From the NCBI GenBank assembly GCA_050506795.1, contig JBJHCF010000003.1, forward strand, positions 6,380 to 70,379: 64,000 nucleotides of DNA, in the 5' to 3' direction. Made by a program: the position numbers and the translations under genes. Below are positions 3,903-20,009 of the stretch, in pieces (within the stretch, counting starts at the first letter, position 1; each line of letters opens with the position of its first letter). This DNA is from Opitutia bacterium. GTDB taxonomy: Bacteria; Verrucomicrobiota; Verrucomicrobiia; Opitutales; T3Sed10-336. The notes under the pieces were generated by a model. The model did no database searches, had not been told where the DNA came from, and saw only the letters and a program-made list of their open reading frames with translations.

Positions 3903-4319
3903 CTATTCCGGCTGGCCGGAGCCGACGAGGTAGATCATGCGCCAGATTTGAGCGGTGTCGCCGCGCTCGACGACCTGCATTGGACTGGCACCGTGAAAAC
4001 CTTTATTTGGAGTGCGAAGCCACGTGCCGATCGACCCTGGTTTCATGAGTTCCTCAAGGGCCTGGAGCAGGGAGCGCAACTCCCGGAGGGTCCGCATGGA
4101 AGCCGCACTGGTCTTTTTTCCGCTCGCCCAGTTTTCCACGGCACGCGGGGAATAGCCTGTCAGGCGGGTTATGTCCAGCCGGGTAAGACCGTAGCGGAGA
4201 CAAATCTCTCGAAGGTTAGGGGCAGCGCTTTCCCCGATTGCCGTTTCGTAAGCCGCCGTGATTTCCTCGACGCGGCCAGGGCGTTTCGCACGAGAATTCT
4301 TTCCCTTCGTTGATTTCAT
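3903..4319 (-). CDS. Xre/MbcA/ParS-type antitoxin (HTH + DUF2384-like C-terminal domain)
   Basis: HTH-like LTRLDITRLTGYSPRAVENWASG, then WLRTPNKGFHGASPMQVVERG, which matches the MbcA/ParS C-terminal pattern. ATG at 4319 chosen as start. Confidence 0.85.
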   Translation of the reverse strand: MKSTKGKNSRAKRPGRVEEITAAYETAIGESAAPNLREICLRYGLTRLDITRLTGYSPRAVENWASGKKTSAASMRTLRELRSLLQALEELMKPGSIGTWLRTPNKGFHGASPMQVVERGDTAQIWRMIYLVGSGQPE

Positions 4320-4380
4320 CCATCTACCGATACGACAGGTTTGCCGGCGGCGCAAGCTAAAATGCCTGCAGAAGTGCATA

Positions 4381-4983
4381 TCAATCCGGGCGAAGCCAGC
4401 GGTTCAATTCGACCGCATCCTCAATTTTTACCGTGCTGTCATTGCTCAGATTCTCGGGAGAGAAGGTCAGGGTGCGCGCACGATGATCCCGTGCGGACCT
4501 CGCAATCAACCCTTCAAATCCCAGGGAAAAGGTTGCCCGCCCAACCGCCTGAGAAAGGCATTCTTTCCCGGTGTCATTGAGACTGGCCCAATCTTCTCCG
4601 AGCAACTCGGCCCACTTTAACCAAGTTTCGTCCTCGGGGAGTTTGGCGAGATTACAAACCTTCGCAAGATTGACCCATATCGGAACAAGCATGTAAGCGC
4701 GGGCTTTTGACGGAGGCATCTGAAACCCTTCCTGCTTTCCGCGCGCTTCTTTTACTGCCAGAAGATCCGTTGAAGCACGAGAGACAGCTCGTTCCTCGCC
4801 GGGGGGCATCCAACGTCCGCCGTAGCGGCGTGTTCCCTGGCCGTTGAGAAGGGCTTCGGGGGACGCAAATTGTGGTGTCGCACACCGGAAGAAACGGCCC
4901 TCGGCTCGCTGCCGAGCTGTTTCCCGGTGCTTTTGGATTTCACGGCGAATCGCGTGAAATCGCGGATGGGGTTCCGTGGTCAT
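4381..4983 (-). CDS. RES-domain toxin (NAD+-targeting family), possibly degenerate
   Basis: FFRC...LLNGQG...GGRWMPPG...KE...GFEGLIARSAR...FSPENL, with R, E and S positions recognisable. Adjacent to an MbcA-type antitoxin. ATG at 4983. Confidence 0.85.
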   Translation of the reverse strand: MTTEPHPRFHAIRREIQKHRETARQRAEGRFFRCATPQFASPEALLNGQGTRRYGGRWMPPGEERAVSRASTDLLAVKEARGKQEGFQMPPSKARAYMLVPIWVNLAKVCNLAKLPEDETWLKWAELLGEDWASLNDTGKECLSQAVGRATFSLGFEGLIARSARDHRARTLTFSPENLSNDSTVKIEDAVELNRWLRPD

Positions 4984-5097: not shown

Positions 5098-8000
5098 TCA
5101 AAGCAGCACCACGACAAAAAACGCGAACAGCACTGCGAACAGGGTGGCGTTGGCGAATTTGACGAAGGCTACGTTGCGCCGGAAAAAGTTCATCAGCCGG
5201 TCGCTGGTGAGGCCGCGCCAGGCGAGGAGGATGATGATCAACAAGGGCAGAATGAAGGCCAGGTTGTAGACCAACAGGTAACCGAATGCGGCCAGGCGTT
5301 CGGCGCCGCTTTGCAGGACCAGCATGATGGTGGGGGCGTACATTTGGCCGGTGCAGGCGAGTTCCAGCAGGGCGATCGCCATGCCGGTGAGAAACGCGGC
5401 TGTGACAAAGTGGCTGTGCTTTACGCCGGAGCGTACGAGAGCGTTGATACGCAGTTTCAGCGGACGGGGCAGTTGCAGAGCGGTTTCCTCCAGTTTTCCC
5501 CGAAGGCAGAGAATGCCGTCACGAATGCTGAGAATGCAGATAACCAGGACCAACCCGGCCAGGATCCAGTTTACGGCGCGCGCTACCGGCTCCAGAGTGG
5601 TGAGTTGACCGATGAGACTGTAAAAGCCGATGCCGATGGCGAAATAGGCGATAAAGACGCCGAGCACAAAAGCGACTCCCACCTGCATGATCTGGGTGGG
5701 CGTCCGCCGGGCCACTTGCAGGTAGGAGAGGAAGAAGATAATCGTGGCGAAGGCACAGGGGTTGAGGCCGTCGAGGAGTCCGGCCGAAAGCACCACCGCG
5801 AAGGTGAATCCGTGAAAGCGTTCCAGGATGCGGGCATCGGCGGCGGCGACCGCCTGTTCGGGCATGGTCAGGACGGACGCGTCCCGCCCCAATGAGCCGC
5901 CGAGGAGTTGATTGAGTGAGTCCAAGCTGATTTCGTCCCGGACCAGGACCCCGGCCGCCGTGACAATGGTTGGGACTACCAGACGATTGCTGATTGGAAC
6001 CTGGAACGTCTCGCTGAGATGTTCGTTCAGGCGGATGGCCGAGGTATCCCGGATGTTGTGATTGTGGATTTCGATCTCCGGGAACAAAGGCCGCAACCGG
6101 GCGAGGTAGTCGCGGACCTGGGCGCAATCGGCGCAGCCGGTCTGGGTGAAGAAGATGACCGGAAGTGTTCCGTTGGGGGCCGTTTCCGCGATCGTTGCCG
6201 GCTGGTCGCCGTTTTCAGGGAGGCGGAGGGCCGTCACGGCCGGTTCCTGGCGGAGTTCGGCGGTTACCACTTCGGAGGCGGGGGTCTCCTCGGTGGCGGG
6301 GACTTCGGCTTCCCGGAGTGCGCGGAAATGAGCCCGAAGGTTATCGATAGTCAGCCGTTGGTTGAAATTATTGAAAGGATAGCCGGTGTTGCGAACATAA
6401 CGAAGCAACCTCTCGTGCTCCGGCCCCATGGACCGGTAATGGGTGTACACGAATCCGGAAACCCAGGACTCGACGCGAAATCGATCCGTGTCGGACGATT
6501 CGAGGGCGTCCAGGTGGGCGGTCAGGGTTTCGGGGTTTTCGATGGTCTCGTAGATGTCGGCCAGGGCGACCAGAGCGCGCAGGCGCAGTTGCCGCACCGG
6601 ATCGGCGGTCATCTCGCGAAGCGGCTGCTCCACCGAGGGCGGCAGACGTTCGTTGTTCGGGCTGGTTGTGCCAAGTGTGGTGTGTGTCACGTTGGACCAG
6701 GAGGAGCTCGAGTAGGCGTCGGAGTATTGGTTTGACCACCAGGATTCATTGCGCTGCACCGCTGCCGGCAGCACCTCACGTACCCGGTAGTCGCTGTCTC
6801 CGGCGATCTGCGCGGCGAGTTCGGGCAGGATCGCGGGACGACTTTGCACTGCCAGGCGGAGGGCGGCGCGGCGGACGAGAGGATCGGGCTGCATGGCCTG
6901 GCTGAGGATCCAGGAACGGTCCTCTTCCCAGGTGATGACCTGTGGCCAGAATACCAGGACAAAAACGCGCAATGCGGTGTCGTTGGATTGTTCATACGTG
7001 TCGCGCAGAATCGTTCGGGTTCGCTGCCGTTCGGGCCCGGTTAAGCGGTGGTAGCTGGGAATGTCGTCGAGGAAACGCTGAAAGTAGGTCGGAACGGGAT
7101 CCGGAGCGTGTGCCAGGATAAACTCGAGGTTGTCCGCGAAGGAACCGTGTTCGAAGAGAGAACGGACCACTCCCCAGGAATGGCTCTCCAGGCGAGGGAA
7201 CAGGCTCCTCAGAAGTTCGACGACGTGCGGATCCGGGTAATCGGAAAGGGATTCCGCCAGGTCGGCGATCTCCCGGGAGGAGAGGGTTTCGATGCGATCC
7301 TTAAGGGTTTCGATGCCCAGTGAGGATCCGATACGGGTCAGAAAGACGGCTGCTTCCAGCGCCACTTCCTCGTCTCCTCCAGAGCGCGCCGCTTCCGCCG
7401 CCTGTTCGAAGGCGGCCAGCGGATGCCTTGTCTCTGGCGAATCGTCGCGGGTCGACTGGTCTCGCGAACCGCCGGAGAAGAGCCGTTGGAGGATGTTTCC
7501 CTGACTCGCGGTCGAGCCCCTTCCGTCCGGATCTTCCCCCAGTCGGGGCAACCGGGCGGACGATGGGTCGAATCGCCGCAGGACCGCCAGTTTTTGGCCG
7601 CGGGTTCCGTCTTTCAACAGGGCGAGAAGCCGTTCGCGGTGGTTCTCGTCTCCGGCGCCTCGGGCGGCCAGCGATTGGGTTGCCGCGATGGAGAAATCCT
7701 CGTTGGGATGATCCAGGAAGCGCCGGGCCATGGAGAGTTGGCTTTCGCGCAGGTTCCCCAGGAAGGAAACAAATTCCGCTTCCCGGCCGGGAGGGAGGCT
7801 TTCAAAAAGGCGATTGGCAAACTCCGGGGGAAGGGGCCAGTCGTTTTGGATGTAGATGCCGAGAACCGCCAGACGCACCGATTCATCCTCCAGAAACAAT
7901 TCGGACAGCATTGGCTGTTGCGCGATGCCGCCCACCCGTCCCAGCGCGGAAAGGGCGCTGAGGCGAACAAACTCGTCTTCATCCCGCACCCGTTCCGCCA

Positions 8001-9450
8001 CATCGGGGGCCAGGGAGGTAAGCCTGAGTTGTTCGACGGTTTCCAATGCGGCGGCGCGCACCCGCCAGCGCGGGTCGGCCAGCAGGGCGCCGATGACTCC
8101 GGTGTCGTGTTCGAAGTCGGAGAGGTGGCGCAGATAATCGAAAGCGAGGATGATCAGATCCTCGGACTCCTCCCGGAGCGCGTCGGTGAGAAGGGCCACT
8201 GTGGACTGGGATTCGATTTCCCCGATGGCCCGCAGGATGCCGACCCGCACATCCGTATCGGTTTCCTCCCGCCACATGGCTTCGATGGCCGGCATGCTGT
8301 CGGCTCCGCCGGCGAGAGCCAGGCGCTCCACCGCACTTTCCCGGACCAGCGGGTCGGGATCACGCAAAAACTCCTGGAGCAGATCCAGGGAGCGCGGCGC
8401 ATATCCGGTCAGCGTTCCCAGAGCCCTCATGCGCACGCCGGGGTCGCCGAAGACAAGGTCGCGGGACAGTCTTTCCGGCCGTTCGGCGGACCAGGTCAGC
8501 AGGACCGCGGCGTAGCGGGCCTGGCGCAGGAGATTGCGCTCCCGGCCGGTCAGGGCCGAATCGTCGGATTCCCGCTCCCTCAGATGTCTCGCCACCGGCA
8601 GACCGCCTTCCATCAACATCGCCAGGGCGCGACGGGAACGCTCGGGGTCCCGGGAGAAGAGTTCGGTCACGTATCCGTCGACCTGCCGCTGCGTGAACGC
8701 GGTGGCGGCGCCCGTCGGCGGGCGATCGGAATCGCTCAGGCCGGTTTCCCATTCCTCCCAGCGAAGGAGGGCGGCGGATTGGTCGGCGGGGGGAATCCAG
8801 GGATCGTAGCCGAACGACTCCCCGGCGCGGGCCTCCAGAACCTCAGTGGCTCCCAGGCGCACCTGGAGCGCGGGGTGCGCCAGCGCCTCGACCAGCCGCG
8901 CGGAGGGAAAGGGAGTTTCGTTCAGGAAGGCTTGCAGGCGGGCGGAACGGTCGCGGCTGATCCCCAGGTCGCGCAGGCGGTCTTCGAAGGCATCATCCAG
9001 CGCGGGTTCCGGGGATTCCGGCGGTTGACTGGCTTCGGCCAGGAACGCCAGCAGTGTTTCGCGGTCGGGGTAACCGATATGACGCCGGCGAACGGTGTGG
9101 TCCGGATAAACCGCCAGCAGGGTAGGCAAACTGTGAATACGCTCGCGCAAGGCAAGGTTTGTGTGTGCCACGGCGTCAAGGCGCACGTTGATAAACGACT
9201 CGAGGGAGGTTTGCACCTCGGGGTCGTCCCAGTGCCGGTCGAGGCGCGCGCTCCATTCGCAGTCCGCGGCGTGAAAGTACACCAGCATCGGTCGGGAGCT
9301 ATCTTCCGCATCCCGCAGGCCGGTCTCCCAGGACGAGCCCCATTCGGCTTGTGCCGGAAGGGCGCCGGTCACGGCGACGACACTCGCGACCGCCGCTGCC
9401 GAAAAGGCGCGGAAGGGATTGGCGAAGATGTTGGCGGGTCCCGGGATCAT
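5098..9450 (-). CDS. Large fusion protein: signal peptide, thioredoxin-like domain (CxxS), HEAT repeats, glutaredoxin-like domain (CxxC), DsbD/CcdA-like transmembrane domain
   Basis: Motifs in order: LVYFHAADCEWS; many HEAT units (DPDPLVRESAV, DPRWRVRAAAL, DEDEFVRLSAL); FFTQTGCADC; then AGLLDGLNPCAF...LELACTGQMY among about 6 TM helices. Start ATG 9450 lies 27 nt after the upstream stop. Confidence 0.8.
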   Translation of the reverse strand: MIPGPANIFANPFRAFSAAAVASVVAVTGALPAQAEWGSSWETGLRDAEDSSRPMLVYFHAADCEWSARLDRHWDDPEVQTSLESFINVRLDAVAHTNLALRERIHSLPTLLAVYPDHTVRRRHIGYPDRETLLAFLAEASQPPESPEPALDDAFEDRLRDLGISRDRSARLQAFLNETPFPSARLVEALAHPALQVRLGATEVLEARAGESFGYDPWIPPADQSAALLRWEEWETGLSDSDRPPTGAATAFTQRQVDGYVTELFSRDPERSRRALAMLMEGGLPVARHLRERESDDSALTGRERNLLRQARYAAVLLTWSAERPERLSRDLVFGDPGVRMRALGTLTGYAPRSLDLLQEFLRDPDPLVRESAVERLALAGGADSMPAIEAMWREETDTDVRVGILRAIGEIESQSTVALLTDALREESEDLIILAFDYLRHLSDFEHDTGVIGALLADPRWRVRAAALETVEQLRLTSLAPDVAERVRDEDEFVRLSALSALGRVGGIAQQPMLSELFLEDESVRLAVLGIYIQNDWPLPPEFANRLFESLPPGREAEFVSFLGNLRESQLSMARRFLDHPNEDFSIAATQSLAARGAGDENHRERLLALLKDGTRGQKLAVLRRFDPSSARLPRLGEDPDGRGSTASQGNILQRLFSGGSRDQSTRDDSPETRHPLAAFEQAAEAARSGGDEEVALEAAVFLTRIGSSLGIETLKDRIETLSSREIADLAESLSDYPDPHVVELLRSLFPRLESHSWGVVRSLFEHGSFADNLEFILAHAPDPVPTYFQRFLDDIPSYHRLTGPERQRTRTILRDTYEQSNDTALRVFVLVFWPQVITWEEDRSWILSQAMQPDPLVRRAALRLAVQSRPAILPELAAQIAGDSDYRVREVLPAAVQRNESWWSNQYSDAYSSSSWSNVTHTTLGTTSPNNERLPPSVEQPLREMTADPVRQLRLRALVALADIYETIENPETLTAHLDALESSDTDRFRVESWVSGFVYTHYRSMGPEHERLLRYVRNTGYPFNNFNQRLTIDNLRAHFRALREAEVPATEETPASEVVTAELRQEPAVTALRLPENGDQPATIAETAPNGTLPVIFFTQTGCADCAQVRDYLARLRPLFPEIEIHNHNIRDTSAIRLNEHLSETFQVPISNRLVVPTIVTAAGVLVRDEISLDSLNQLLGGSLGRDASVLTMPEQAVAAADARILERFHGFTFAVVLSAGLLDGLNPCAFATIIFFLSYLQVARRTPTQIMQVGVAFVLGVFIAYFAIGIGFYSLIGQLTTLEPVARAVNWILAGLVLVICILSIRDGILCLRGKLEETALQLPRPLKLRINALVRSGVKHSHFVTAAFLTGMAIALLELACTGQMYAPTIMLVLQSGAERLAAFGYLLVYNLAFILPLLIIILLAWRGLTSDRLMNFFRRNVAFVKFANATLFAVLFAFFVVVLL

Positions 9451-9476
9451 GGATACACTTTGAGTCGAACCGGGCG

Positions 9477-10175
9477 TCAATGCAGCAGCGAGTACATGAG
9501 AATATTCACGTTGAGGCGATCGGCATTGCGTATTTCGTTGCCGCCGCAGCAGCAACAGCCGTTGGTGTTGGCGGTGTTGTTGAGCCCGTGCCGGGAATAT
9601 ATCAGAACGATTTTCCCCTGGTGGGTGATGCCCTCCAGGTAGGCGTTCTCGTCGCTACTGGCCAGGTCGAGGGTATCGATGGTGTACACGGTCCGGAAAA
9701 TCGGGTGGTCCATGGGGATGCGGGTCAATTCAAGTCCGTCATCTCCGAGCACCTGAACCATGTTTCGGCGAAAAGCGCGGTCCCAATCGCTGCTGGAACA
9801 CCCGGCGGAGGCGAGCATAAACCCTCCGTTGGTGAGGTACCGGCGGAGGTTGTCGCGTTCGTTGGCGGTGAAGTTGAAGTCCGACTCTCCGGTGATCATG
9901 ACGAACGGGTAGCGGAAAAGTTCTTCGGAATTCAGCCGTACGCTGCGAAACCGGCGTTCGGTGGGAATGGCGGTTTCCCGTTGCATAATGGACAGAAACT
10001 CGTCGCTGAAGCAGCGCGAGGTGTTGGTGCCGGCGTAGATCAGGTTGGCGCACTGGATGGAACGCGACTGGACCATGGCGGCTGCCTGTTGGGTGACTAA
10101 GCCGAGGGTCAGTACGAAAGCGACGAGCAATGCGGTCGCGGATCGGCAGAGGTGTCTCAGGTTCTTTGTTTTCAT
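9477..10175 (-). CDS. DUF4159 domain protein with CCCC motif
   Basis: LFRYPFVMITGESDFNFT..ERDNLRRYLTNGGFMLASAGC, PMDHPIF, and LEGITHQGKIVLIYS fit the DUF4159 pattern. C-terminal GCCCCGGNEI; signal peptide present. Confidence 0.8.
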   Translation of the reverse strand: MKTKNLRHLCRSATALLVAFVLTLGLVTQQAAAMVQSRSIQCANLIYAGTNTSRCFSDEFLSIMQRETAIPTERRFRSVRLNSEELFRYPFVMITGESDFNFTANERDNLRRYLTNGGFMLASAGCSSSDWDRAFRRNMVQVLGDDGLELTRIPMDHPIFRTVYTIDTLDLASSDENAYLEGITHQGKIVLIYSRHGLNNTANTNGCCCCGGNEIRNADRLNVNILMYSLLH

Positions 10176-10185
10176 GACGATGGAT

Positions 10186-12993
10186 TCATGGTTCGGAATT
10201 AAGATTGTCCAGAGATTGGAAATACCGGCGGGCGGCATCCCGGTAACGTTCGGGCATGGGTTGCAGAAGAAGCGAGTCCCTGGGATCGGATACGGCAGCT
10301 TCGGCTTCGATCGCGGAACCCGTTTCGACGCGGGTGGCGCCCGTGCCGGACCCCGGACCTCCCGCGCCGTCCCTCCCGGTGGCGCCGGCGCCCTGATAGG
10401 CCAGCCCTTCGCGGGCGGGCGAGAATCCGCTGCGTTGCGGGCCGTAAACCGGCACGCCGAGAGGCGATCCCGGACCGCTCATCCAGGCGCCTTCGCCGCC
10501 CATCCCGGCGCCTCTGCCTCCGCCGATGCCGAAGCCGCGTCCCTGGCCCGGGGAGCCGGGCATCCCGCCGGAGCCGAGGAGCGAACTCAGCATTTGGGCG
10601 AGAGTCTGGTTGAGGTCGGGCAGGGTGAAATTCAGATTGCCTTCGCACATCCCGCCGAAGGCGCCGTCGGAGCATTGTTCGAGCAGGGATTCCAGACTCT
10701 CCAGCGCGCGGTTGGCATGGGTGAGCATGGCGCCGGGGCGGACCTCGCGTCCGGCTTCGGAGGCGTCCTCCATATCGACTGGAATTTGCAGGAGGTAGAT
10801 CAAGGTGGTCACCTCCATGGCGCTTTCCCGGAGAGAGTAGTAACGCGGCTCATTGGGCAGGGCGTCCACGGCGTCTTTGATGGCATGGGCCACGGATTCC
10901 AGTTCCTCGCGGAGGTCGTCCTGTGCCTCACCCAGGTCGCGGATGGTTTCCGTATCGACGCCGCCGGCGCGGTTGACCTCACGATCCATGTGACGCGTCA
11001 GGTCGCGCTGATTTTCCACCACGGCGGAAAGGCGGGCGGCGAGTTCCATCAACTCGTGAATCCGGTCCAGCGTTTCCGCGTCCTCCCGGAGGTTGTCCCA
11101 CTCCTCGTTCTCGGGCCCGTTCCAGCGCTCGCGCATGGCGGCCAGGGTTTCATCGGCTTGCGGGTCTCCGAGGTTCATCCGTCCCAGTTGTTCCTGCTGG
11201 GCGGCCAGGGCGTCGGCCGACTCCCGCCAGAGGGCGGCGGCGGTGCTCTCGATGTCGTAGGCGGGGAAATCGTCGGCCAGGGCATCCATGACGCCGCGCG
11301 CGTTCTCCATCGCCTCGGCAAGAGCGTCTTTCAGGGCTTGCAGTTCGGACTCGTCCGCGCCGTCCCGCATCGCTTCGCGCAGGGCGTCGATCGCTTCGGT
11401 GACGACTTCCAGGGCCAGGTGCGTCTCTTCCATCTTACGGACGAAGTCACGAATGGTCAGCTCGCTGCGGAGAAATTCGGCGTAGGTTTCCTCGTCGATG
11501 ATCTCCACGCGGACCAGGTTGGAGGTGACGGCGCCACTATCGGGATTGGTGTCGCGGGCCTGGGCGTAAAACTCGAGCACGTTGCCCGGTTCGGCTCCGA
11601 GACGGGCCAGGTCGATGCGTTCGTGGATAGGCAGTGCGGTTTCGGGCGCTGCCGGACCGAGGTGATGCGAACGGTCGCGAAAACGCCCCAGGCCCCGCCA
11701 GAGATCCACCCGGCGGATTCCGAGGTCGTCGCGGGCGTACCCTTCCAGATTGAGGACCGTCGACGGCGTGGCCAGGGAGTAGGCAGGCGGCTCGGTCAGG
11801 GCGATCTCCGGTGGATTGTCGGTCTGGGCCTTCTGGGTGAGTTGGAAAGGCTCGCGACTGCGGGTGCCGCGCAGGTCTTCCAGGATCACTTCGAGTTCGG
11901 CGTCGCTTTCCAGGAACCAACGAAAGCGCGCCGTGCTGCCTTCCAGAATCTCCGCCTGCACCGCACGGGTACCGTCCTCGTTGTGCAGGGTGAGGCGTCC
12001 GGTGGCGAGGGGACGATTACTGGCGACCGAGAGCGTGAACTCGGCGCCGGCGTGGCCCTCGATGACCTCTTCGCGCAGCAGGCGATCCGTGACCGGCAGG
12101 CGGGTGTAGGCGGGCGGTTCGGTGCGGAGGCGGGCCGCCAGGATGCGCGGTTCGTACTGCACCGGCAGTGTCATCCAGCGGGTACGGGCGCGACCGGTGG
12201 CGAAGGCGATCCGCATTTCTCCGGTGAGATTTTCCACTTCCTGTACAAACCGGCGTTCCGATTCCTGGAAACAGATCCGTTCGCTTTCTCCGCCAGGGCC
12301 GCGCAGGAGGAGCACCACCTGCTCGCGCAGTGGCGGACCGTGCACCTCCACTGCCAGTTCGGCGGTGTCGCCGTAATACACGGGCTCCTCCGGCAGGTGG
12401 AGGGTGAAATGGTATCGCGAATACGGAGGGTGGTCCTGCCACGGAAAGAGCACTCTCGGGTAGGTAGTGGAAAAAACCGGGAAGAGCAGCAAGCTGACCA
12501 AGGCCACACCGCAGGTACAGCAGAGTGCAAAGCGCATGCCCGATCGGGCGGACGGGTTGTACTGGATCCGCTTTTCCGGGTGGGCGTCCAGGATGCCGGC
12601 GCCTTCGTCCAGCAGGTGTTCGGACAGGTACCGTTTGAAAGGTGAGACCGAATCCCGGGCGAGTTCCTCTCGGGCCTGGAGGGAGGAAAGCACAGGATGC
12701 CGTCCGTCCGCCGTGCGGTCGGCGTAACGGGCGAAATCGGAAAGCGTGCGCGCGCGGTGGCGGGCGGTGAACCAGAGGATCGCCCCCAGGCAGAGCCCGG
12801 TCCAGACCAGGGCCAAGGTGCCGCGCGCGGCGGCCGGAAGGGCCAGCAGGGCGTCGATTGCGGCCAGCCCCAACCATCCGGCGAGAAACACACCGCCCAG
12901 CCGGAGGAGTGAACCGGCCAACAGACCGTTCACCCAGACTCGATGGAGGCGGGAGAGGAGGTCGGAAAACCGGTGGTGTGAGGTGTCGTTCAT
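10186..12993 (-). CDS. Membrane-anchored Ig-like/coiled-coil protein (DUF4175-like) typical of PVC MoxR-vWA operons
   Basis: Three N-terminal TM segments, beta-rich middle (PPAYTRLP, DNPPEIALTEP, ARDDLGI), long acidic coiled coil, Gly-rich linker and terminal MPERYRDAARRYFQSL. ATGA overlap with the upstream gene. Confidence 0.7.
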   Translation of the reverse strand: MNDTSHHRFSDLLSRLHRVWVNGLLAGSLLRLGGVFLAGWLGLAAIDALLALPAAARGTLALVWTGLCLGAILWFTARHRARTLSDFARYADRTADGRHPVLSSLQAREELARDSVSPFKRYLSEHLLDEGAGILDAHPEKRIQYNPSARSGMRFALCCTCGVALVSLLLFPVFSTTYPRVLFPWQDHPPYSRYHFTLHLPEEPVYYGDTAELAVEVHGPPLREQVVLLLRGPGGESERICFQESERRFVQEVENLTGEMRIAFATGRARTRWMTLPVQYEPRILAARLRTEPPAYTRLPVTDRLLREEVIEGHAGAEFTLSVASNRPLATGRLTLHNEDGTRAVQAEILEGSTARFRWFLESDAELEVILEDLRGTRSREPFQLTQKAQTDNPPEIALTEPPAYSLATPSTVLNLEGYARDDLGIRRVDLWRGLGRFRDRSHHLGPAAPETALPIHERIDLARLGAEPGNVLEFYAQARDTNPDSGAVTSNLVRVEIIDEETYAEFLRSELTIRDFVRKMEETHLALEVVTEAIDALREAMRDGADESELQALKDALAEAMENARGVMDALADDFPAYDIESTAAALWRESADALAAQQEQLGRMNLGDPQADETLAAMRERWNGPENEEWDNLREDAETLDRIHELMELAARLSAVVENQRDLTRHMDREVNRAGGVDTETIRDLGEAQDDLREELESVAHAIKDAVDALPNEPRYYSLRESAMEVTTLIYLLQIPVDMEDASEAGREVRPGAMLTHANRALESLESLLEQCSDGAFGGMCEGNLNFTLPDLNQTLAQMLSSLLGSGGMPGSPGQGRGFGIGGGRGAGMGGEGAWMSGPGSPLGVPVYGPQRSGFSPAREGLAYQGAGATGRDGAGGPGSGTGATRVETGSAIEAEAAVSDPRDSLLLQPMPERYRDAARRYFQSLDNLNSEP

Positions 12994-15197
12994 AACAGTC
13001 CGAGCCGGCGGCGGATGGCCCATTCGGTTCCGGCCAGGCCGACCAGCATAAGGAGGAGCCAGGAGGTGTCCCATCGCGTTTGCCAGGTGGCCTCGCCGCT
13101 GTCGGCGAGGGTCCCGGCGGGATCGCGCGCATCGGCATCCTGGATACGGAAGGTTTCATCGGCGGAGTAGGATGTTCCTCCGGTGGCCCGGGCCAGGCGG
13201 CGCAGGAATTCGTGATCGGCGCTCAGGTTGTCGCTTTCGGCCGCGGGCGGAACGACTTCCAGGTGGGCCGAGGCGGACGGGCCTTCGGCGCCCGGGGTGT
13301 GGACTTCGATCCGGTACAACCCGGGTTGGTCCAGTTCGAGGAAGGCCTGCCAGCGGTAATTTCCGCGGGTGACCGGCGACGCCCGGAAACGCCGAACCTC
13401 CTCGCTGCCGCGAATCACCGCGATGTTCGGTTCGGCGGCGGGCCCCGTGTCGTCTTCCCTTTCGGCCACAAAGAGACGGACCGATTCGCCCGCGCGGATT
13501 GTTGTTTGTCCGAGCCGAACGGCGTAATCCTGGCCGGGCAGGAATTCGTTGTAGGTGCTCGTCCACTGGATGAGCTGCGCCCAGAAATCCCGGTAGAATT
13601 CGCCCGCTTCCTCAAGTTGGGGAAAGAAATCCCATTCCCACAGCCCTTCCGCGTTTAGGGCCACGACCATGCCCTGGCCGAGCCGCCGCACCGCGAGCAA
13701 GGGGATGGGGGACCGACCGTTTCCTCCGTCTCCTTCCACCAGAACCTGGGCGAAGGAAGCCAGCCCTCCCACCCGGCGGACGCCGCCCAGTGAAGGAGTC
13801 TTATCCCAGAGCGGGTCGAGGTGTCCGGGCAGGCCATGACCGAACAAGCCCGCGCTTTCGCCGTGCAGCGTCGGCTGCCAACGGACGGCCGCGGTATGGA
13901 ATTCCCCCCAGGCGAAGGGTTGCAGACGCTCCAGGGACTCGTTTTCGCCCTGCCACGGTTTGCCCCGGGTGAAGAGCAGGGCGCCGCCGTGGTCGGCGAC
14001 GAAGCGGTGCAGGAGATCGGCGCGGGTTTCGTCGACGAAATACTCCACGCCTTTGCCGAAAAGCACGAGATCGTATCGGTTCAGTTCCTCCAGACTGGCG
14101 GGAAAGACCGCGGCCGATTCTTCGGTCAGTCCGGCCTCTTCCGCCCCGACGTGAAAGAACCGGTCGGCGGTCACGCGGTGCACGGTGGACAGCCGCACGT
14201 GGGCGGACTCGCGCAGGAGTTGCACGATGAATTTGGTGTCCCAGTGGGGCGAACCTTCCACCAACAGGACGTGCAAATCGCCCTCCAGCACCACCAGGCC
14301 GAGCGGGGCCTCGTTGTTGCTCAAACGGACCTCACCGGGCTGAGCCGGGCTGCGCAGACGGTACTCGTAGAAGCCCGGGTCGAATGGAGGGAGTTCGAAG
14401 GAAAAACCCGCTTCGCCTCCGTCGTCGAGCGTCACCCGTTGGCGGTCGACCACCTCCCCGGCGCCGTTCAGCAGTTCGATCTCGGGACGAAGAGGGCCGA
14501 GGCCGACGGCGCGGATGTGTCCCCGCACCACCGGACGCTGATCGTTAAAAACGGTGATGCGCCTGGGACGGGCGCGGATCTCCAGGTCGGGAACCTCCAC
14601 CTCCCCGCCGACGCCGTAGGTGTGAATCGGCGCGCCGGCTTCGCGGGCGCGCCGGATGGCCTCCGCCGGATCGGAGTCCGGGACTTCCCGGCCGTCGCCG
14701 GCCACCAGCACACCAAGCGGATCCACCGCTCCGGGAACGCGCGACCAGACCCGTTCCAGGGCGGCGGCGAGTCCGGTGCCGCCGGATTCCGCCAGCGGCG
14801 CTTCCGGCCAGGCGCCGTCGATGGGTTCCAGGTCCGAGGCATAGGTAAAACGGTAGACCGGGACGCCGTCGCTTTCGATCCGGCGCTCGGCGGCGGCCAG
14901 CCATTCTCGAGCCCGTTGGTAGCGTGTTTGGCCGTCCGCGTCGGGCACCGCCATGCTGGGGCTGCGATCGAGCAACAGGACCCAGGCGCCGGTCTGTTCG
15001 CTGGGACGCTCTTTCCACTGGCCCGGGTTCAGGGCGAGGACCAGAAGGAGAACGGCCACGGCGGCGCGCAGGGAAAACAGTCCGGCGCGGGCGAGCGGTT
15101 CCCGGCCGCGGGTGCTTCGCCAATTCAGGTAAAGCAGGACCGCGCCGCCGGCGATGGCCAGCGGGATGAGGTATTCCATGGGTATCAGAGGATTCAT
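12990..15197 (-). CDS. vWA-domain plus glutamine-amidotransferase-like membrane protein
   Basis: Two N-terminal TMs, MIDAS-like LLDRSPSM and AGDG, VLLVEGSPHWDTKF, LNRYDLVLFG, and a C-terminal TM (GLAGTEWAIRRRLGLL). ATGA overlaps on both sides. Confidence 0.8.
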   Translation of the reverse strand: MNPLIPMEYLIPLAIAGGAVLLYLNWRSTRGREPLARAGLFSLRAAVAVLLLVLALNPGQWKERPSEQTGAWVLLLDRSPSMAVPDADGQTRYQRAREWLAAAERRIESDGVPVYRFTYASDLEPIDGAWPEAPLAESGGTGLAAALERVWSRVPGAVDPLGVLVAGDGREVPDSDPAEAIRRAREAGAPIHTYGVGGEVEVPDLEIRARPRRITVFNDQRPVVRGHIRAVGLGPLRPEIELLNGAGEVVDRQRVTLDDGGEAGFSFELPPFDPGFYEYRLRSPAQPGEVRLSNNEAPLGLVVLEGDLHVLLVEGSPHWDTKFIVQLLRESAHVRLSTVHRVTADRFFHVGAEEAGLTEESAAVFPASLEELNRYDLVLFGKGVEYFVDETRADLLHRFVADHGGALLFTRGKPWQGENESLERLQPFAWGEFHTAAVRWQPTLHGESAGLFGHGLPGHLDPLWDKTPSLGGVRRVGGLASFAQVLVEGDGGNGRSPIPLLAVRRLGQGMVVALNAEGLWEWDFFPQLEEAGEFYRDFWAQLIQWTSTYNEFLPGQDYAVRLGQTTIRAGESVRLFVAEREDDTGPAAEPNIAVIRGSEEVRRFRASPVTRGNYRWQAFLELDQPGLYRIEVHTPGAEGPSASAHLEVVPPAAESDNLSADHEFLRRLARATGGTSYSADETFRIQDADARDPAGTLADSGEATWQTRWDTSWLLLMLVGLAGTEWAIRRRLGLL

Positions 15198-17200
15198 GAC
15201 GCTGTTCCCTCCTTGTCCGGGCGGGCCAGACGACAGAAAAGCGCCTCGGCCAGCAACAATCCGGCGGCCAGCGCCAGGAACCAAGGCCACCAGTCCACCC
15301 CTTCGCGCAGACGCCGGACCTGGTTGGCGTGGTTCAGGGTGATGGCGGTTTCGCTGGTGAACGTATCCGGGTTACGGGTACGGAGATCCGACTGGTCGGC
15401 GGGAAACCGCACGGCGGTGAGCCCGACCGTGCGACCATCGCTGCGCCAGGAGTAAACGCCGGGTTCAGGCAGAGGGGCGGTCAGAAACCGGTCGAAGCGG
15501 GCGTCGCCCTCCCAGGCCGGCCTCTGATTGTGGTCGCGGGGCCCCTCCAGCACCGGCTCGCGGACCCCCCAGTCCGCCGGAAAGGCACGGCTGACGCTTC
15601 GTCCGGCGAGCGTTTCGCGGCCGGGGACACTGATACCGTCGCGCGCGGTGCGGGCGATTTCGCCGGCCAGGGCGAGGAACTCCGGAAGCAGGGCGTAGGC
15701 GGCGCGACCGTTTTCCTCCAGGGGAATATTCCATCCGTAAATCCGGCCCGCCCCCGCGGATTCGCGCACCAGCGCCGGGGTGTCGTCCTGCCAGGCCAAC
15801 AGCACGGCGACGGGATCGCCGCCGTTGCGAGAGGGCCAGACAACACGCTCTTGGTAGGTCCCGCGCGCGGGATCGCCAAAATCGCCCCCGGAAAACACCT
15901 CGAACAGCGGGTCGTCCGGGAGCAGGAGGCGCAGGGACTGGGGTTCCCGCAGGTTTTGCCGGGTGAGGGGGGCGCCGTTTTGAGCGCTGCCCGGGGTCGG
16001 GTGCCAGATCACGGTGCCGCCGCGTTCGAAGACGGGTTCGAAGGCGGGGAGGGCGCGGGGGTCGTCGCCCGCCCAGATCACCACTTCGGCCTCGTTAAGA
16101 CCGGGTTGTCCCGGTTCAAATACGTTAACGCGGGTCCCGTCGAGGGAGCGAAAGGCGCGTTCCCAGAACGGATTGGGCCGGACGGAATCGCCGGCCAGGG
16201 CGACGGTGGTTCCGGCGGTGACTTCGACGACGACGTCGCGGAAGTTGTCGAGGGGGAAAGCGTCTTCGGGCAGCGCCGCCCGCACGGCGTATTCGCCCGG
16301 TTCCTCCCAGTGCAGGATCGTGGTGACGAGGCGGCTTTCCCAGGCTTCCAGGAAGACATCTTCGCTTTGCCGGAAATTGCCGCTGGAAAACAGGACTTCG
16401 AGGCGGCGGGGTTGATCGGAGTAGTTGATGACCTCGCCGGTGGCCGCTACGGTTTCCCCCGCACGCGGGCGTTCGGGTTCCAGGAAGAGGCGGCGGAGGG
16501 CGGTGTTGGCGGGCGAGGTGTCGGTCGCCACCGGCAGGACGGCCATCCGAATCGAATCGGGGATCGGGGGAAGCGGGGACTCCCAGGTGCCGCGCTGGAA
16601 ATCGGAAATCAGGATCAGTTCCCGCGGACCTTCGGTTTGGCCGAGGTGGTCGAGCGCGGTTGCCACCGCAGCGGCCCCGGATCCGGATTCGTGGGTGACG
16701 CGGGCCCGTTGCAGGGATTCGCGGAGGAAGTCGGTGTTGCGGGAGGGTTGGGCGGCGACGGCCACGGGCCGTTCGCGCACCCAGATGACATTGGCGCGAT
16801 CGCCGGTACGCAGGCTGCCCAGCACGGCGCTGGCTTCGGCCAATGCGCGATTAAAACGGCTGCCGCCTCCCGCGTCGTAGGCCATGGAGGCGGTGGCATC
16901 AACCACCAGGACGACGGTTCTGCCGGCGTCCTCCTCTTCGGACCAGGCCTGGGCTTCGTAGGTGCGCGGTTGCAGGAACGCCAGCAGCAGAGCGATCACG
17001 GCGGCGGTGCGCAGCAGGAGGAGCAGCCAGTCTTTGGGACGCTGCCATTTGCGGGTTTTGCGAACGCCGCGCAGGATGAATTCGATGGAGCTGAACTCGT
17101 AGCGGCGCGGCCGGAGACGGGCGATGAGGTGCACGAGGAAGGGCAACCCGGCCAGCACGGCGAGGGGAAGAAGGTGAGGGTTGCCGAAACTCCAGTTCAT
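15194..17200 (-). CDS. BatA-like N-terminal double-TM domain plus vWA-domain protein
   Basis: FGNPHLL...LPFLVHLI...EFSSIEF...WLLLLLRTAAV...AFLQP (BatA domain); VVDATASM and LILISDFQ (vWA); C-terminal TM WWPWFLALAAGLLLAE. Confidence 0.85.
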   Translation of the reverse strand: MNWSFGNPHLLPLAVLAGLPFLVHLIARLRPRRYEFSSIEFILRGVRKTRKWQRPKDWLLLLLRTAAVIALLLAFLQPRTYEAQAWSEEEDAGRTVVLVVDATASMAYDAGGGSRFNRALAEASAVLGSLRTGDRANVIWVRERPVAVAAQPSRNTDFLRESLQRARVTHESGSGAAAVATALDHLGQTEGPRELILISDFQRGTWESPLPPIPDSIRMAVLPVATDTSPANTALRRLFLEPERPRAGETVAATGEVINYSDQPRRLEVLFSSGNFRQSEDVFLEAWESRLVTTILHWEEPGEYAVRAALPEDAFPLDNFRDVVVEVTAGTTVALAGDSVRPNPFWERAFRSLDGTRVNVFEPGQPGLNEAEVVIWAGDDPRALPAFEPVFERGGTVIWHPTPGSAQNGAPLTRQNLREPQSLRLLLPDDPLFEVFSGGDFGDPARGTYQERVVWPSRNGGDPVAVLLAWQDDTPALVRESAGAGRIYGWNIPLEENGRAAYALLPEFLALAGEIARTARDGISVPGRETLAGRSVSRAFPADWGVREPVLEGPRDHNQRPAWEGDARFDRFLTAPLPEPGVYSWRSDGRTVGLTAVRFPADQSDLRTRNPDTFTSETAITLNHANQVRRLREGVDWWPWFLALAAGLLLAEALFCRLARPDKEGTAS

Positions 17201-18063
17201 CGGATCAATCCGTCGAAAAGGTGGTGAATGGGTTTGTCGGTACGGGCCAGCACGTGACGAATCTGTCGCCGGGTCGCCAATTCGCGCAGGCTGCGCAGGT
17301 GGGCGGCGAAAGCGTCCTCGTAGGCGGCACGCAGGTGTTCGATATGGGCGATTTCCCGGCGGCCGGTCTCCATGTCGACGAAGGCGGTCAGGCCGCGACC
17401 CCGCAGCTCCATTTCGTCCGGGTGCACCAGGTGGTAGAGGTGAATCTTGAAACCGCGGTGAATCCAGGGGGAGAGGGCTTCAAAGATTTCGGCCGGATTG
17501 TCCAGGAAATCGGATACGATCACCAGGGTGCCGCGTCGCCGCACCAGGGGAAGCGCGCGGCTCAGGGATTCGGCCAGACGGGTTTGGCCAGCGGGGCGGT
17601 TGGATTCAAGGGCCTGGAGTATGCGGTGCAGGTGCCGGTTGGTGCTGCCGGAGGGGAAGAACTCGCGGGGAGCGGTGTCGAAGATTTGCAGAGAGACCTG
17701 ATCGCGGTTCTTGACGACCAGGTAGCACAGGGCGGCGGCGAAAAAGGAGGCGTGGTCGAGTTTGGATGCCGGTTGCCCGAAGCCCATGGAGGCGCTGCTG
17801 TCGAGGAGAATGTGACAGTCGGTGCTGGTTTCGATTTCGAAAGTGCGCAGGTACGGGCGTTCGGTGCGGGCGTAAACGCGCCAGTCGAGACTCTTGATGT
17901 CATCGCCGGGTGAATACGGACGATGATCGCGAAACTCGGTGGACAAACCGGTGCGGTGTGACTGGTGGCGGCCCGCCAGGTAACCCTCCGCCAGGGCTTT
18001 GGGGGCGAACTCAAAGCTGTTGAGGCGGGCGAGATCTTCGGCCCTGAGGTATTTCCAGGCCAT
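17197..18063 (-). CDS. DUF58 domain protein
   Basis: GRHQSHRTGLSTEFRDHRPYSPGDDIKSLDWRVYARTE and ILLDSSASMGF, the canonical DUF58 motifs. Confidence 0.93.
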   Translation of the reverse strand: MAWKYLRAEDLARLNSFEFAPKALAEGYLAGRHQSHRTGLSTEFRDHRPYSPGDDIKSLDWRVYARTERPYLRTFEIETSTDCHILLDSSASMGFGQPASKLDHASFFAAALCYLVVKNRDQVSLQIFDTAPREFFPSGSTNRHLHRILQALESNRPAGQTRLAESLSRALPLVRRRGTLVIVSDFLDNPAEIFEALSPWIHRGFKIHLYHLVHPDEMELRGRGLTAFVDMETGRREIAHIEHLRAAYEDAFAAHLRSLRELATRRQIRHVLARTDKPIHHLFDGLIR

Positions 18064-18067
18064 GACG

Positions 18068-19063
18068 TCAATCCAGGTTTTGCAGCAGGTGATCGATGAT
18101 CTGATCCGCGCCGATCCCTTCCCCCGTGGCGTGGTAGCTGGGGATTACCCGGTGGCGGAGAACCGGGCGGGCGAGGTCGCGCACTTCCTCGATCGAAGCC
18201 CCGTGCCGTCCGCGGGCCAGGGCGAGGGCGCGCGCGGCCAGGGTGAGACATTGGGAGGCGCGCGGGCCGGCGCCCCAGGCCACGTACTTGCGCACGAAGT
18301 CGTCCGCGCGATCGCCCTTGGGACGGGTGGCGTTGACCAGTCCCAGGATGGCGTCGAGGACGTGTTCCGGAAGAGGGACATCGTAAACCAGGTTCTGGAG
18401 TTCGAGCAACTCGGCGCCGGTCAGCACCGTCTCCGGGGTGATCTTCTCGCGCTTCACCGTGCGGTGAATGACCTCCTTTTCCTGGTCGATGTCCGGATAA
18501 TCCACGGTGAGATTAAAAAAGAAACGGTCGAGTTGGGCTTCCGGCAGCGGGTAGGTACCTTCGTGTTCGATCGGATTTTGTGTGGCGAACACCACGAACG
18601 GTTCCTCCAGCACCAGGCTTTTGCCCGCCACCGTCACCTGTTTTTCCTGCATGGCCTCGAGCAGGGCCGACTGCGTCTTGGGAGGGGTGCGGTTGATCTC
18701 GTCGGCCAGAATGAGGTTGGCGAAGAGGGGACCCTGCAGGAACACGAACCGCCTCCCTTCGGGAGTGTCCTGCAGGATCTCGCTGCCGAGGATGTCGCTC
18801 GGCATCAGATCGGGCGTGAACTGAATGCGCCGGAAACTGAGCCCGAGGACCTGGCCGAGCGTGCTCACCAGGAGCGTCTTGGCCAGGCCCGGCACCCCCT
18901 CGATCAGGCAGTGGCCCTTGCAGAGCAGGGCGACCAGCATCCTCTCCACCACCTGGTCCTGGCCGACGATTACCTGGCCGAGGTTTTCCTTGATGCGTTT
19001 GATTTCGGTTTGCACGGTCTCCCACTGCTGGGAGGGAGGGGATTCGGGTGTGCGTGTATTCAT
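18068..19063 (-). CDS. moxR: MoxR family AAA+ ATPase
   Basis: Walker A EGVPGLAKT, RIQFTPDLMPSDI, Walker B LADEINRTPPKTQSALLEAMQE, ATQNPIEHEGTYPLPEAQLDRF, WGAGPRASQ. Confidence 0.96.
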   Translation of the reverse strand: MNTRTPESPPSQQWETVQTEIKRIKENLGQVIVGQDQVVERMLVALLCKGHCLIEGVPGLAKTLLVSTLGQVLGLSFRRIQFTPDLMPSDILGSEILQDTPEGRRFVFLQGPLFANLILADEINRTPPKTQSALLEAMQEKQVTVAGKSLVLEEPFVVFATQNPIEHEGTYPLPEAQLDRFFFNLTVDYPDIDQEKEVIHRTVKREKITPETVLTGAELLELQNLVYDVPLPEHVLDAILGLVNATRPKGDRADDFVRKYVAWGAGPRASQCLTLAARALALARGRHGASIEEVRDLARPVLRHRVIPSYHATGEGIGADQIIDHLLQNLD

Positions 19064-19088
19064 GGATCGGTAATGGCAGGATTGACGG

Positions 19089-19640
19089 TCAGGAGCCTCC
19101 GAGAAGTTTCTCCAGTTCTGCAAGGATGCCGCGCGCCCCGACGCGGTCACCGTCGGGCGGGTGACTGTGCGCCACCACTTCGCCGTCGCGATCGAGGATC
19201 ACCAGGCCGGGGATCGCGCGGGTGCGGTTGCCGGCGGCCGGGACCACATCGTCGAGTCGATCATAGGCCACCGCCGGCCAGGGCATGGGGTAGTCGTTCA
19301 TATACCCGGCCATTTCTTCGACGCTGCGGTCGCGGCTGTAGAAGATCAATTCGAAGTTGCCGTGTTCCTCCTTCAATTCGTTGTACTTCTCGATCAGGTC
19401 GGGCGTGAACTGACGGCAGGGGCCGCACCAGGCGGCGGAGTAATAGAAGACGTAATAATCGGCGTCGTTCAGTGCGCCGTAGTCTTCGACAGGCGCGGTG
19501 CTTTGATTGGTCCCCGAATTGACCAGTGCCCCGTCAAGGGCCAGGGCAACAGGGGAAGCGGGCCGCTCTTCGGCGGTCGCGAAGGGCGCCGCAAGCAAGG
19601 CGAGCGACGCGAACAGGGGAAGCAGTTGCTGTTTCATCAT
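19089..19640 (-). CDS. Secreted thioredoxin-like protein (nucleoredoxin/tryparedoxin type)
   Basis: Signal peptide; FYYSAAWCGPCRQFTPDL...FELIFYSRD...MPWPAV...IPGLVILD. Confidence 0.9.
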   Translation of the reverse strand: MMKQQLLPLFASLALLAAPFATAEERPASPVALALDGALVNSGTNQSTAPVEDYGALNDADYYVFYYSAAWCGPCRQFTPDLIEKYNELKEEHGNFELIFYSRDRSVEEMAGYMNDYPMPWPAVAYDRLDDVVPAAGNRTRAIPGLVILDRDGEVVAHSHPPDGDRVGARGILAELEKLLGGS

Positions 19641-19839: not shown

Positions 19840-20009
19840 GCGGGCCGTCAGTTTTCGCACCTCGGCCACCTTTGATTTGCCGTATTGGACGAACTCATGT
19901 GCTCTAATCCTGACCCCTGATACCGGTTTGTGAGCCTTGACAAAGGCATTCCGGTCTGATTTGCTGTTCTGACAGCTTGCCGCAACCTCCATTTGAACCG
20001 GAACAAAAG

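Follow-up and report, generated by a model that had tools for sequence, protein, structure and literature searches.

The 64,000-nucleotide stretch of DNA analysed here (the window), from contig JBJHCF010000003.1 of the Opitutia bacterium assembly GCA_050506795.1, carries on its minus strand a run of eight tightly packed genes, g1–g8 (5098–19640), of which g2–g8 were identified by sequence comparison as one conserved envelope module of the Planctomycetes–Verrucomicrobia–Chlamydiae (PVC) group, here Verrucomicrobiota, Lentisphaerota and Kiritimatiellia, and of more distant lineages. This operon brings together a MoxR-type ATPase with von Willebrand factor A (vWA)-type partners, a secreted, cysteine-rich DUF4159 protein (g7) and a large fusion protein (g8) in which thioredoxin (Trx)-fold domains, a HEAT solenoid and a membrane domain weakly similar to those of DsbD and CcdA are combined. 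Taken as a whole chain, our favoured reading, which we hold with modest confidence, is that g8 serves as a DsbD-type reductase keeping the DUF4159 thiols reduced. The coupling appears to be widespread and undescribed, and not a new principle.

For domain assignment, Pfam and NCBIfam searches of the g1–g8 proteins were used, and gene coordinates and junctions were taken with the most plausible start codons. Successive genes are never more than 26 nucleotides apart. A 25-nucleotide gap, read from the sequence, lies between g1 and g2; 4 nucleotides separate g2 from g3, the DUF58 gene thus starting 4 nucleotides 3' of MoxR; ATGA overlaps join g3/g4, g4/g5 and g5/g6; and gaps of 10 and 26 nucleotides follow at g6/g7 and g7/g8. 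These junctions bear out the initial annotation, made from the letters alone, which had described eight same-strand genes with short gaps and three ATGA overlaps; every cysteine motif that it listed (WCGPC, CxxS, CxxC, a membrane Cys pair and CCCC) was also present.

The last gene, g8 (5098–9450), encodes a fusion of 1450 residues. Behind a signal peptide come a Trx_7 domain (about 9001–9318; Pfam Thioredoxin_7, E 1.5e-7), a HEAT solenoid (about 6181–8883; HEAT_2, 1e-26), a glutaredoxin (Grx)-like domain (about 5881–6180) and a six-helix membrane domain (5101–5820). Only seven cysteines are present, and five of these lie in redox motifs: the CxxS of DCEWS in the Trx_7 domain (9250–9261), the CADC of GCADC in the Grx-like domain (6124–6135), and NPC and ACTGQ in predicted membrane helices 1 and 4 (Cys codons at 5755–5757 and 5353–5355, respectively). 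All 41 family members share both cysteines of the Grx CxxC, the proline at the cis-Pro position, NPC and E..CTGQ without variation, and Grx CxxC, NPC and CTGQ were kept in 42 of 42 strong g8 homologues; because of this invariance, the motifs are far beyond chance.

The soluble domain next to the membrane has the marks of a periplasmic Trx-fold CxxC domain, with its invariant CxxC and cis-Pro and a signal peptide that places it outside the membrane. A periplasmic location of both the HEAT and the Grx-like parts is also indicated by variants in which a single membrane helix is followed by a basic C-terminal tail. The match to Pfam Glutaredoxin (PF00462) is below threshold in the window (E 1.2e-3, 19.4 bits against a cut-off of 22.9) and is found at E ≤ 0.01 in 25 of 41 relatives; profile searches of the PDB returned glutaredoxins (approximately 4e-4), and Foldseek returned thioredoxins. 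We regard 'Grx-like thioredoxin fold' as the safe name for this domain. The N-terminal Trx_7 domain is more variable. Some 40% of PVC homologues lack it. Its motif is CxWC in most homologues, CxWS or CxWT in the clade of the window, and without the first cysteine in two others.

The membrane domain can be assigned to the DsbD/CcdA superfamily only tentatively, on weak similarity. Conserved cysteines occupy helix 1 and helix 4 of a six-helix model, the pattern of that superfamily. In an AlphaFold2 (AF2) model of the Grx–membrane part (predicted local distance difference test (pLDDT) score 86.8), a thioredoxin fold leads into six membrane helices, the first and fourth of which are interrupted at their cysteines. 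A protein annotated by Pfam as DsbD_2 matched a g8 membrane domain by phmmer with an E value of 1.5e-5, the two being aligned on an SPC/NPC motif. In DsbD, ScsB and CcdA, electrons from cytoplasmic thioredoxin travel by way of one Cys pair, in helices 1 and 4, and reach a Trx-like domain in the periplasm (PMC3322552). With all three g8 shares one essential-looking cysteine in each of these helices and a periplasmic N terminus, with CcdA the number of six helices, and with DsbD and ScsB one or two fused periplasmic Trx-fold CxxC domains. Unlike these systems, it carries its redox domains N-terminal of the membrane domain, with a HEAT solenoid of approximately 900 residues between them, and it has neither the Ig-like alpha domain nor the C-terminal gamma domain; its sequence does not reach the thresholds of Pfam DsbD and DsbD_2, and its gene is tied to one operon and is no general hub.

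A protein found on five contigs, P0034 (L001 10001–11677; also in L002 and L003), was considered as a Rosetta-stone fusion of DUF4159 and g8. It joins a signal peptide and the first two-thirds of DUF4159, without CCCC, to a Grx domain and a CcdA-like module. It was counted as weak evidence only, because its DUF4159 part is truncated, no MoxR operon surrounds it (two small open reading frames (ORFs) stand before it) and it may have arisen by deletion between neighbouring genes.

The presumed client is encoded immediately upstream of g8. The g7 protein (9477–10175; 232 residues) is secreted and belongs to DUF4159 (PF13709; E 1.7e-29, 103 bits against a cut-off of 25.9), with a predicted GATase1/ThuA-like fold. 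It has seven cysteines: C42, C55, C126 (within SAGCS; 9798–9800) and the run C207–C210, which forms CCCC within GCCCCGG near the C terminus (9546–9557). All seven are conserved in alignments of short secreted DUF4159 proteins, a family of 2943 sequence clusters at E ≤ 1e-10. CCCC was found in all 80 related genome loci, a result partly guaranteed by the search pattern. Long DUF4159 forms, which are presumably fused to BatA_N, lacked CCCC in 41 of 44 cases, and nearly all of those also lacked a SAGC-type motif. In support of the initial annotation, which proposed a Cys-rich client, the cysteine set is specific to the short secreted subfamily.

An AF2 model of g7 (pLDDT 87) was closest by Foldseek to PDB 4I66 (E 4e-13, TM-score 0.70/0.80), and a profile search agreed (1.2e-16); further Foldseek matches were ThuA-like proteins, the N-terminal domain of IFT52 and class I amidotransferase-like proteins. 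In the model, C126 lies between strand 119–124 and helix 129–146, which is the 'nucleophile elbow' position, and H157 and E214 are invariant in the DUF4159 alignment. The protein 4I66 (Hoch_4089) thus has the fold and the Pfam family of g7, but it lacks both C126 and CCCC; g7 further differs from it and from the long forms in being secreted and in its seven conserved cysteines.

To place the operon among relatives, species-representative genomes were scanned with a 13-sequence DUF4159 alignment as seed, which returned 80 loci; the named ones belong to Verrucomicrobiota, Lentisphaerota or Kiritimatiellia, except for one Planctomycetia and one Neomarinimicrobiota label. Metagenomes were scanned with distant DUF4159 sequences, 30–40% identical to g7 of the window. 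All sampled neighbourhoods concern the short secreted DUF4159 form. The order MoxR–DUF58–BatA/vWA–X–Y–DUF4159, corresponding to g2–g7, was kept in related genome loci and in distant metagenome loci; g5 and g6 were conserved in position, as was g2 in those related loci that reach far enough upstream. For downstream partners, 82 loci with enough sequence (57 genome and 25 metagenome) were counted, and an exported Trx-fold CxxC protein followed DUF4159 in 71 of them (50 of 57 genome and 21 of 25 metagenome loci, the partner in the latter being sought within the next one or two genes). One locus, L027, proved to be a false negative of the automated partner scan.

Several further lines of evidence tie g8 to this position. 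When look-ups were begun from the g8 side, 6 of 6 lay within two genes of DUF4159. Family-specific Trx/Grx profiles, run over 1.85 Mb of loci, matched 109 ORFs just 3' of DUF4159 and 1 elsewhere, and this single exception also adjoins DUF4159, in convergent orientation. At least 59 cluster representatives of 1050–1550 residues have the full-length g8 architecture, with or without the N-terminal Trx domain. The HEAT-fused form was seen only next to DUF4159, and, wherever the full-length architecture was looked up, directly after MoxR–DUF58–BatA–X–Y–DUF4159. The C-terminal 360 residues of g8 (Grx plus membrane domain) also occur as a large family of stand-alone proteins of approximately 390–550 residues, labelled 'CcdA/glutaredoxin' by one source, whose closest members (47–52% identical) sit in unrelated neighbourhoods. 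On the strength of synteny, membership of g8 in the operon is close to certain, and in this respect the first assignment of the last gene to the operon is upheld.

The usual PVC architecture consists of a signal peptide, an optional Trx_7 domain, approximately 900 residues of HEAT repeats, a Grx-like CxxC domain and a six-helix membrane domain; 42 of the 50 genome homologues have the complete Grx and six-helix module. Seven others keep the Grx CxxC but have, where the six helices would be, a single membrane helix with a basic tail, and the remaining one has a different, Cys-free membrane domain. In distant operons the partner is mostly a protein of 1100–1390 residues in which a thioredoxin (CGPC or CxWC) precedes HEAT repeats, without the Grx–membrane module, and in a few cases a stand-alone thioredoxin of 260–300 residues; ten examples of these Trx-fold partners were confirmed by Pfam.

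Other electron carriers were encountered in the distant operons. A tetrahaem c-type cytochrome (four CxxCH) is encoded between DUF4159 and the Trx–HEAT gene in 7 of 29 metagenome loci, and cytochromes of this kind (Pfam Cytochrome_C554/C7) were recorded directly after DUF4159 in L104, L131, L134, L135, L140, L145, L148 and L171; the 80 PVC genome loci yielded none. In L172, which like L171 came from a look-up on the g8 side, the space between DUF4159 and the Trx–HEAT gene holds a PepSY_TM membrane protein together with a DUF4149 protein (8253–10004); these may represent another electron-carrying module in the slot of the cytochrome. Across the sampled loci, a Trx-fold domain on a HEAT scaffold thus emerges from sequence as the constant partner of the short DUF4159 subfamily, with the attached electron-carrying module varying by lineage.

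Individual loci also showed local rearrangements and neighbours. Genes for an AAA_15/AAA_21 ATPase and a 234-residue protein (5302–7319) are inserted on the opposite strand between the g6 homologue and DUF4159 in L171, where the trio of DUF4159, cytochrome and Trx–HEAT genes stays intact. L083 has another MoxR paralogue (16082–17071, opposite (minus) strand; E 2e-86 against g2), approximately 1.3 kb 3' of its g8 homologue. Among Akkermansia loci, a convergent gene of the ATP synthase alpha/beta family follows DUF4159 in L084 and L089, and a di-haem cytochrome c peroxidase gene lies downstream on the opposite strand in L062.

Based on this anatomy, a working scheme can be drawn. The cytoplasmic MoxR ATPase (g2) and its DUF58 partner (g3) would drive the inner-membrane proteins g4, g5 and g6, with the secreted DUF4159 protein and g8 as the components facing the periplasm. 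Most likely by analogy with DsbD or ScsB, the six-helix domain of g8 would take electrons from cytoplasmic thioredoxin through its helix-1/helix-4 Cys pair and hand them to the Grx-like CxxC domain just outside the membrane. The next acceptor would be an intact N-terminal Trx_7 domain, where there is one, or else clients docked on the HEAT solenoid would receive them directly. DUF4159 would be the best candidate client, its seven cysteines being otherwise prone to oxidation in the periplasm. Gene order, domains, conserved residues, predicted topology and synteny are what the analysis shows; which way electrons flow and which protein is the client are read from anatomy and synteny, and co-transcription is likewise inferred. 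The presence of cytochrome c and PepSY_TM proteins in the same slot of distant operons supports the scheme. A proposal of 1999, summarised in PMC3557215, has Bat proteins helping to provide the periplasm with reducing power; a dedicated g8 reductase fits this proposal and would give it a molecular basis in this type of operon.

A number of observations weigh against such a role. The membrane domain of the window matched neither Pfam DsbD (PF02683) nor DsbD_2 (PF13386), and its best Pfam match was SfLAP, itself below threshold (E 1.5e-5; 25 bits against a cut-off of 35); DsbD_2 was matched by only 2 of 41 relatives at E ≤ 0.01. Alignment to one DsbD_2 protein by hhalign gave an E value of 0.0048 but a probability of 7%. 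Profile searches of the PDB and Foldseek with the whole Grx–membrane model recovered the Trx-fold part and no CcdA, and comparison of helices 1–3 with helices 4–6 revealed no significant internal 3+3 repeat (hhalign E 0.076). The Trx_7 motif of the window is a CxxS, degenerate in its clade. Eight PVC homologues of g8 keep the Grx domain and lack the Cys-bearing membrane domain, and the conduit is therefore dispensable in cis. CCCC is retained without a redox partner in cis in 11 of 82 loci, among them five Akkermansia operons (L062, L073, L084, L088 and L089), which end at DUF4159 and have no g8 in cis. Promoter and terminator scans of the operon performed no better than on shuffled sequence.

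These gaps leave room for other explanations, the foremost being that the operon handles metal. CCCC, CxxC and the membrane Cys pair could serve to bind a thiophilic metal and pass it on, or to form a metal or iron–sulphur centre in DUF4159, with MoxR/vWA as an insertion machine, as in NorQD or chelatases, and the membrane domain as a LysE-superfamily transporter. We consider this unlikely. The best Pfam neighbours of the membrane domain are SfLAP and DsbD_2, which we take to be members of the LysE clan, presumably home to metal exporters as well. A four-Cys run is unusual for a purely structural disulfide site, and in distant relatives the slot behind DUF4159 is taken by haem proteins; metal-cofactor insertion is, moreover, the role for which MoxR/vWA pairs are best known (PMC9976466, PMC13036017). 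The soluble domain of g8, however, has the full redox signature of a thioredoxin fold, with CxxC at a helix start and cis-Pro; many relatives have a canonical CGPC or CxWC thioredoxin; the helix-1/helix-4 arrangement of two cysteines is the DsbD/CcdA pattern; and no metal-binding family was matched in the Pfam and NCBIfam searches of the operon proteins. Alternatively, the g8 cysteines may form a periplasmic switch that gates the MoxR/vWA machine and supplies no electrons, which we judge improbable. The optional N-terminal Trx domain, monothiol in the window, and the homologues lacking a Cys-bearing membrane domain would suit a sensor. The Bat phenotype is oxygen-related, yet Leptospira bat mutants showed no oxidative-stress defect and a signalling role was suggested there (PMC3557215). 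A fused transmembrane domain with two cysteines is nevertheless most simply an electron source, the Grx CxxC occurs in every strong g8 homologue and every aligned family member, and other lineages add electron carriers, such as the cytochrome c and PepSY_TM proteins.

A role for g8 in forming or shuffling disulfides in DUF4159 or another operon product seems to us less probable again. A CxxS motif is typically seen in thioredoxin folds of the isomerase-like or trapping kind, and the odd number of conserved DUF4159 cysteines could include structural disulfides. Disulfide isomerases, however, also need a DsbD-type reductant, so that this account overlaps the favoured one, and a membrane domain of DsbD type, as opposed to DsbB/VKOR type, points to reduction. 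That g8 and g1 are general reductases of the periplasm, with a housekeeping task such as cytochrome c maturation, and merely adjoin a MoxR operon is highly improbable. The failure of g1 to travel with the operon and the unrelated contexts of the closest stand-alone Grx–membrane proteins speak for it, but for g8 chance adjacency is excluded because 71 of 82 loci, from lineages far apart, share the synteny and the HEAT-fused form is found only beside DUF4159. A more ambitious possibility, which we rate as doubtful, goes beyond reduction of a client: the operon might build and power a new periplasmic redox enzyme, with DUF4159 as an active GATase1-like enzyme with a Cys nucleophile, its CCCC holding a redox cofactor or metal, and assembly by MoxR/vWA. 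The electron module would then be swapped between lineages, being a HEAT-tethered DsbD-like conduit in PVC bacteria and a tetrahaem cytochrome c or PepSY_TM haem protein elsewhere.

The status of g1 (19089–19640) is different from that of g8. This gene encodes a secreted TlpA/ResA-like thioredoxin of 183 residues, with an N-terminal hydrophobic signal and a WCGPC active site (19416–19430), and it matched both Thioredoxin_8 (2.5e-14; 53.8 bits against a cut-off of 27) and Redoxin (3.8e-10; 40.2 bits against 26.6) above threshold. In signal peptide, active site and family it resembles TlpA, ResA and CcmG, the classic acceptors of electrons from CcdA or DsbD. It appears to be lineage-specific: in none of the related loci did phmmer searches with g1 (E ≤ 1e-4) detect a homologue 5' of MoxR, and L010 lacks it. 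In GCA_003566885.1, whose g8 is 91% identical to that of the window, there is no g1, and the operon begins at MoxR, after a divergent gene. The initial annotation had pictured the operon as bracketed by redox genes; since g1 is missing in relatives, the operon is not bracketed and has a conserved redox tail. Of the redox genes expected to accompany the operon, the g8-type partner was thus found in relatives and the g1-type thioredoxin was not.

In 28 of 31 relatives with upstream sequence (counted among loci L014–L086), a different same-strand gene ends just before MoxR, and this large gene may belong to the conserved operon as its eighth member. The pre-MoxR genes of L007 (1–352) and L009 (1–442) encode proteins of 960–1037 residues with no Pfam domain. 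No homologue of the pre-MoxR gene was found in the window, where g1 occupies its place. As far as the sampled relatives show, g1 is probably a recent add-on of this genome outside the conserved operon, its only tie being a 25-nucleotide gap in one genome; chance adjacency is the best reading for it. It may still be co-transcribed with the operon, given the short gap and the absence of a predicted terminator, in scans that did no better than with shuffled sequence. It may also be an extra acceptor of g8 electrons, since the Trx_7 domain of g8 here has only CxxS. The idea that g1 compensates for that CxxS was set aside as speculation; the relative with the 91%-identical g8 shares the DCEWS motif and lacks g1 in cis.

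The remaining genes give the operon its family resemblance. The g2 protein (18068–19063; 331 residues) is a cytoplasmic MoxR-type AAA+ ATPase, with an AAA_3 MoxR core (1e-61), an AAA lid (AAA_lid_2, 1e-14) and a bpMoxR match (1.5e-12), and its gene adjoins that of a DUF58 partner, as is characteristic of MoxR ATPases. This partner, g3 (17197–18063; 288 residues), is vWA-like (DUF58 5e-46, VWA_2 4e-10). It is followed by g4 (15194–17200; 668 residues), a BatA-type membrane protein with an N-terminal double transmembrane anchor (Pfam BatA 1.5e-15; NCBIfam TIGR02226 two_anch 5e-13), a vWA domain (VWA_2 1.4e-10) and a C-terminal membrane helix. The next two are membrane proteins of no known family. 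In g5 (12990–15197; 735 residues), two N-terminal membrane helices and no cysteine are present; no Pfam or NCBIfam match was obtained at 0.01 (the best was VWA at 0.027), the PDB sequence search was empty, and no paralogy with g4 was detectable. The g6 protein (10186–12993; 935 residues) has three membrane helices near its N terminus, then a helical or coiled stretch, and a tail rich in Gly; Pfam, NCBIfam and PDB sequence searches were likewise empty.

With MoxR and DUF58 ahead of a BatA protein, which combines the BatA_N double anchor with vWA, and with further membrane or periplasmic proteins, the operon recalls the Bat operon of Bacteroides fragilis and its spirochaete and Francisella homologues. 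No match to the TPR proteins BatC and BatE or to BatD was found by Pfam in g5–g8, which have HEAT repeats instead, and as a counterpart of the vWA protein BatB, g5 offered only a VWA match at E 0.027. Because MoxR, DUF58 and BatA are present but BatC, BatD and BatE are not, sequence comparison identifies the operon as Bat-like only, and not as a Bat operon; g5, g6, the Cys-rich DUF4159 protein and the HEAT–reductase fusion stand in place of BatC, BatD and BatE. An AAA_3 MoxR gene beside vWA partners is also the arrangement of NorQ/NorD, RavA/ViaA and CbbQ/CbbO. MoxR–vWA pairs are generally thought to remodel a dedicated client or to insert metal into it; unlike NorQ/NorD-type pairs, the operon has its presumed clients across the membrane in the periplasm and a thiol-redox component of its own. 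The MoxR–vWA–YebA operon (PMC3495828) turned out to be another system. A full-text literature search for DUF4159 returned the Pfam database paper only, and related searches returned nothing on this operon.

On its upstream side the operon is bounded by a divergent gene at 19977, and on its downstream side by a RES/Xre-like toxin–antitoxin pair (3903–4983, minus strand). A RES-domain protein (4381–4983; Pfam RES 6.8e-8) is encoded approximately 115 nucleotides 3' of g8 on the same strand, followed by an ORF (3903–4379) with a weak signal for an Xre/MbcA/ParS C-terminal antitoxin domain; from these matches the two probably constitute a RES–Xre toxin–antitoxin pair. The fraction of G + C is 0.62–0.68 inside the operon (6001–18000), compared with 0.56–0.60 in the 6-kb flanks on either side, and is approximately 0.61 at the g1 end of the region.

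Operons of the Bat-like MoxR/vWA kind occur widely and influence aerotolerance and virulence in several bacteria, and their substrates and chemistry have been obscure since 1999, the year in which an export of reducing power was first put forward. The operon described here ties a DsbD-like reductase to a MoxR/vWA machine and singles out one Cys-rich periplasmic protein as its likely client, so that a vague hypothesis of reducing power becomes directly testable. It also defines a Cys-decorated DUF4159 subfamily with thousands of members in the searched protein collection, and the Trx–HEAT–Grx–membrane arrangement, assigned by weak similarity, would add a fourth architecture to the DsbD superfamily. 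Should DUF4159 turn out to be a redox enzyme built and powered by this operon, it would provide the first concrete biochemical job for Bat-like operons.

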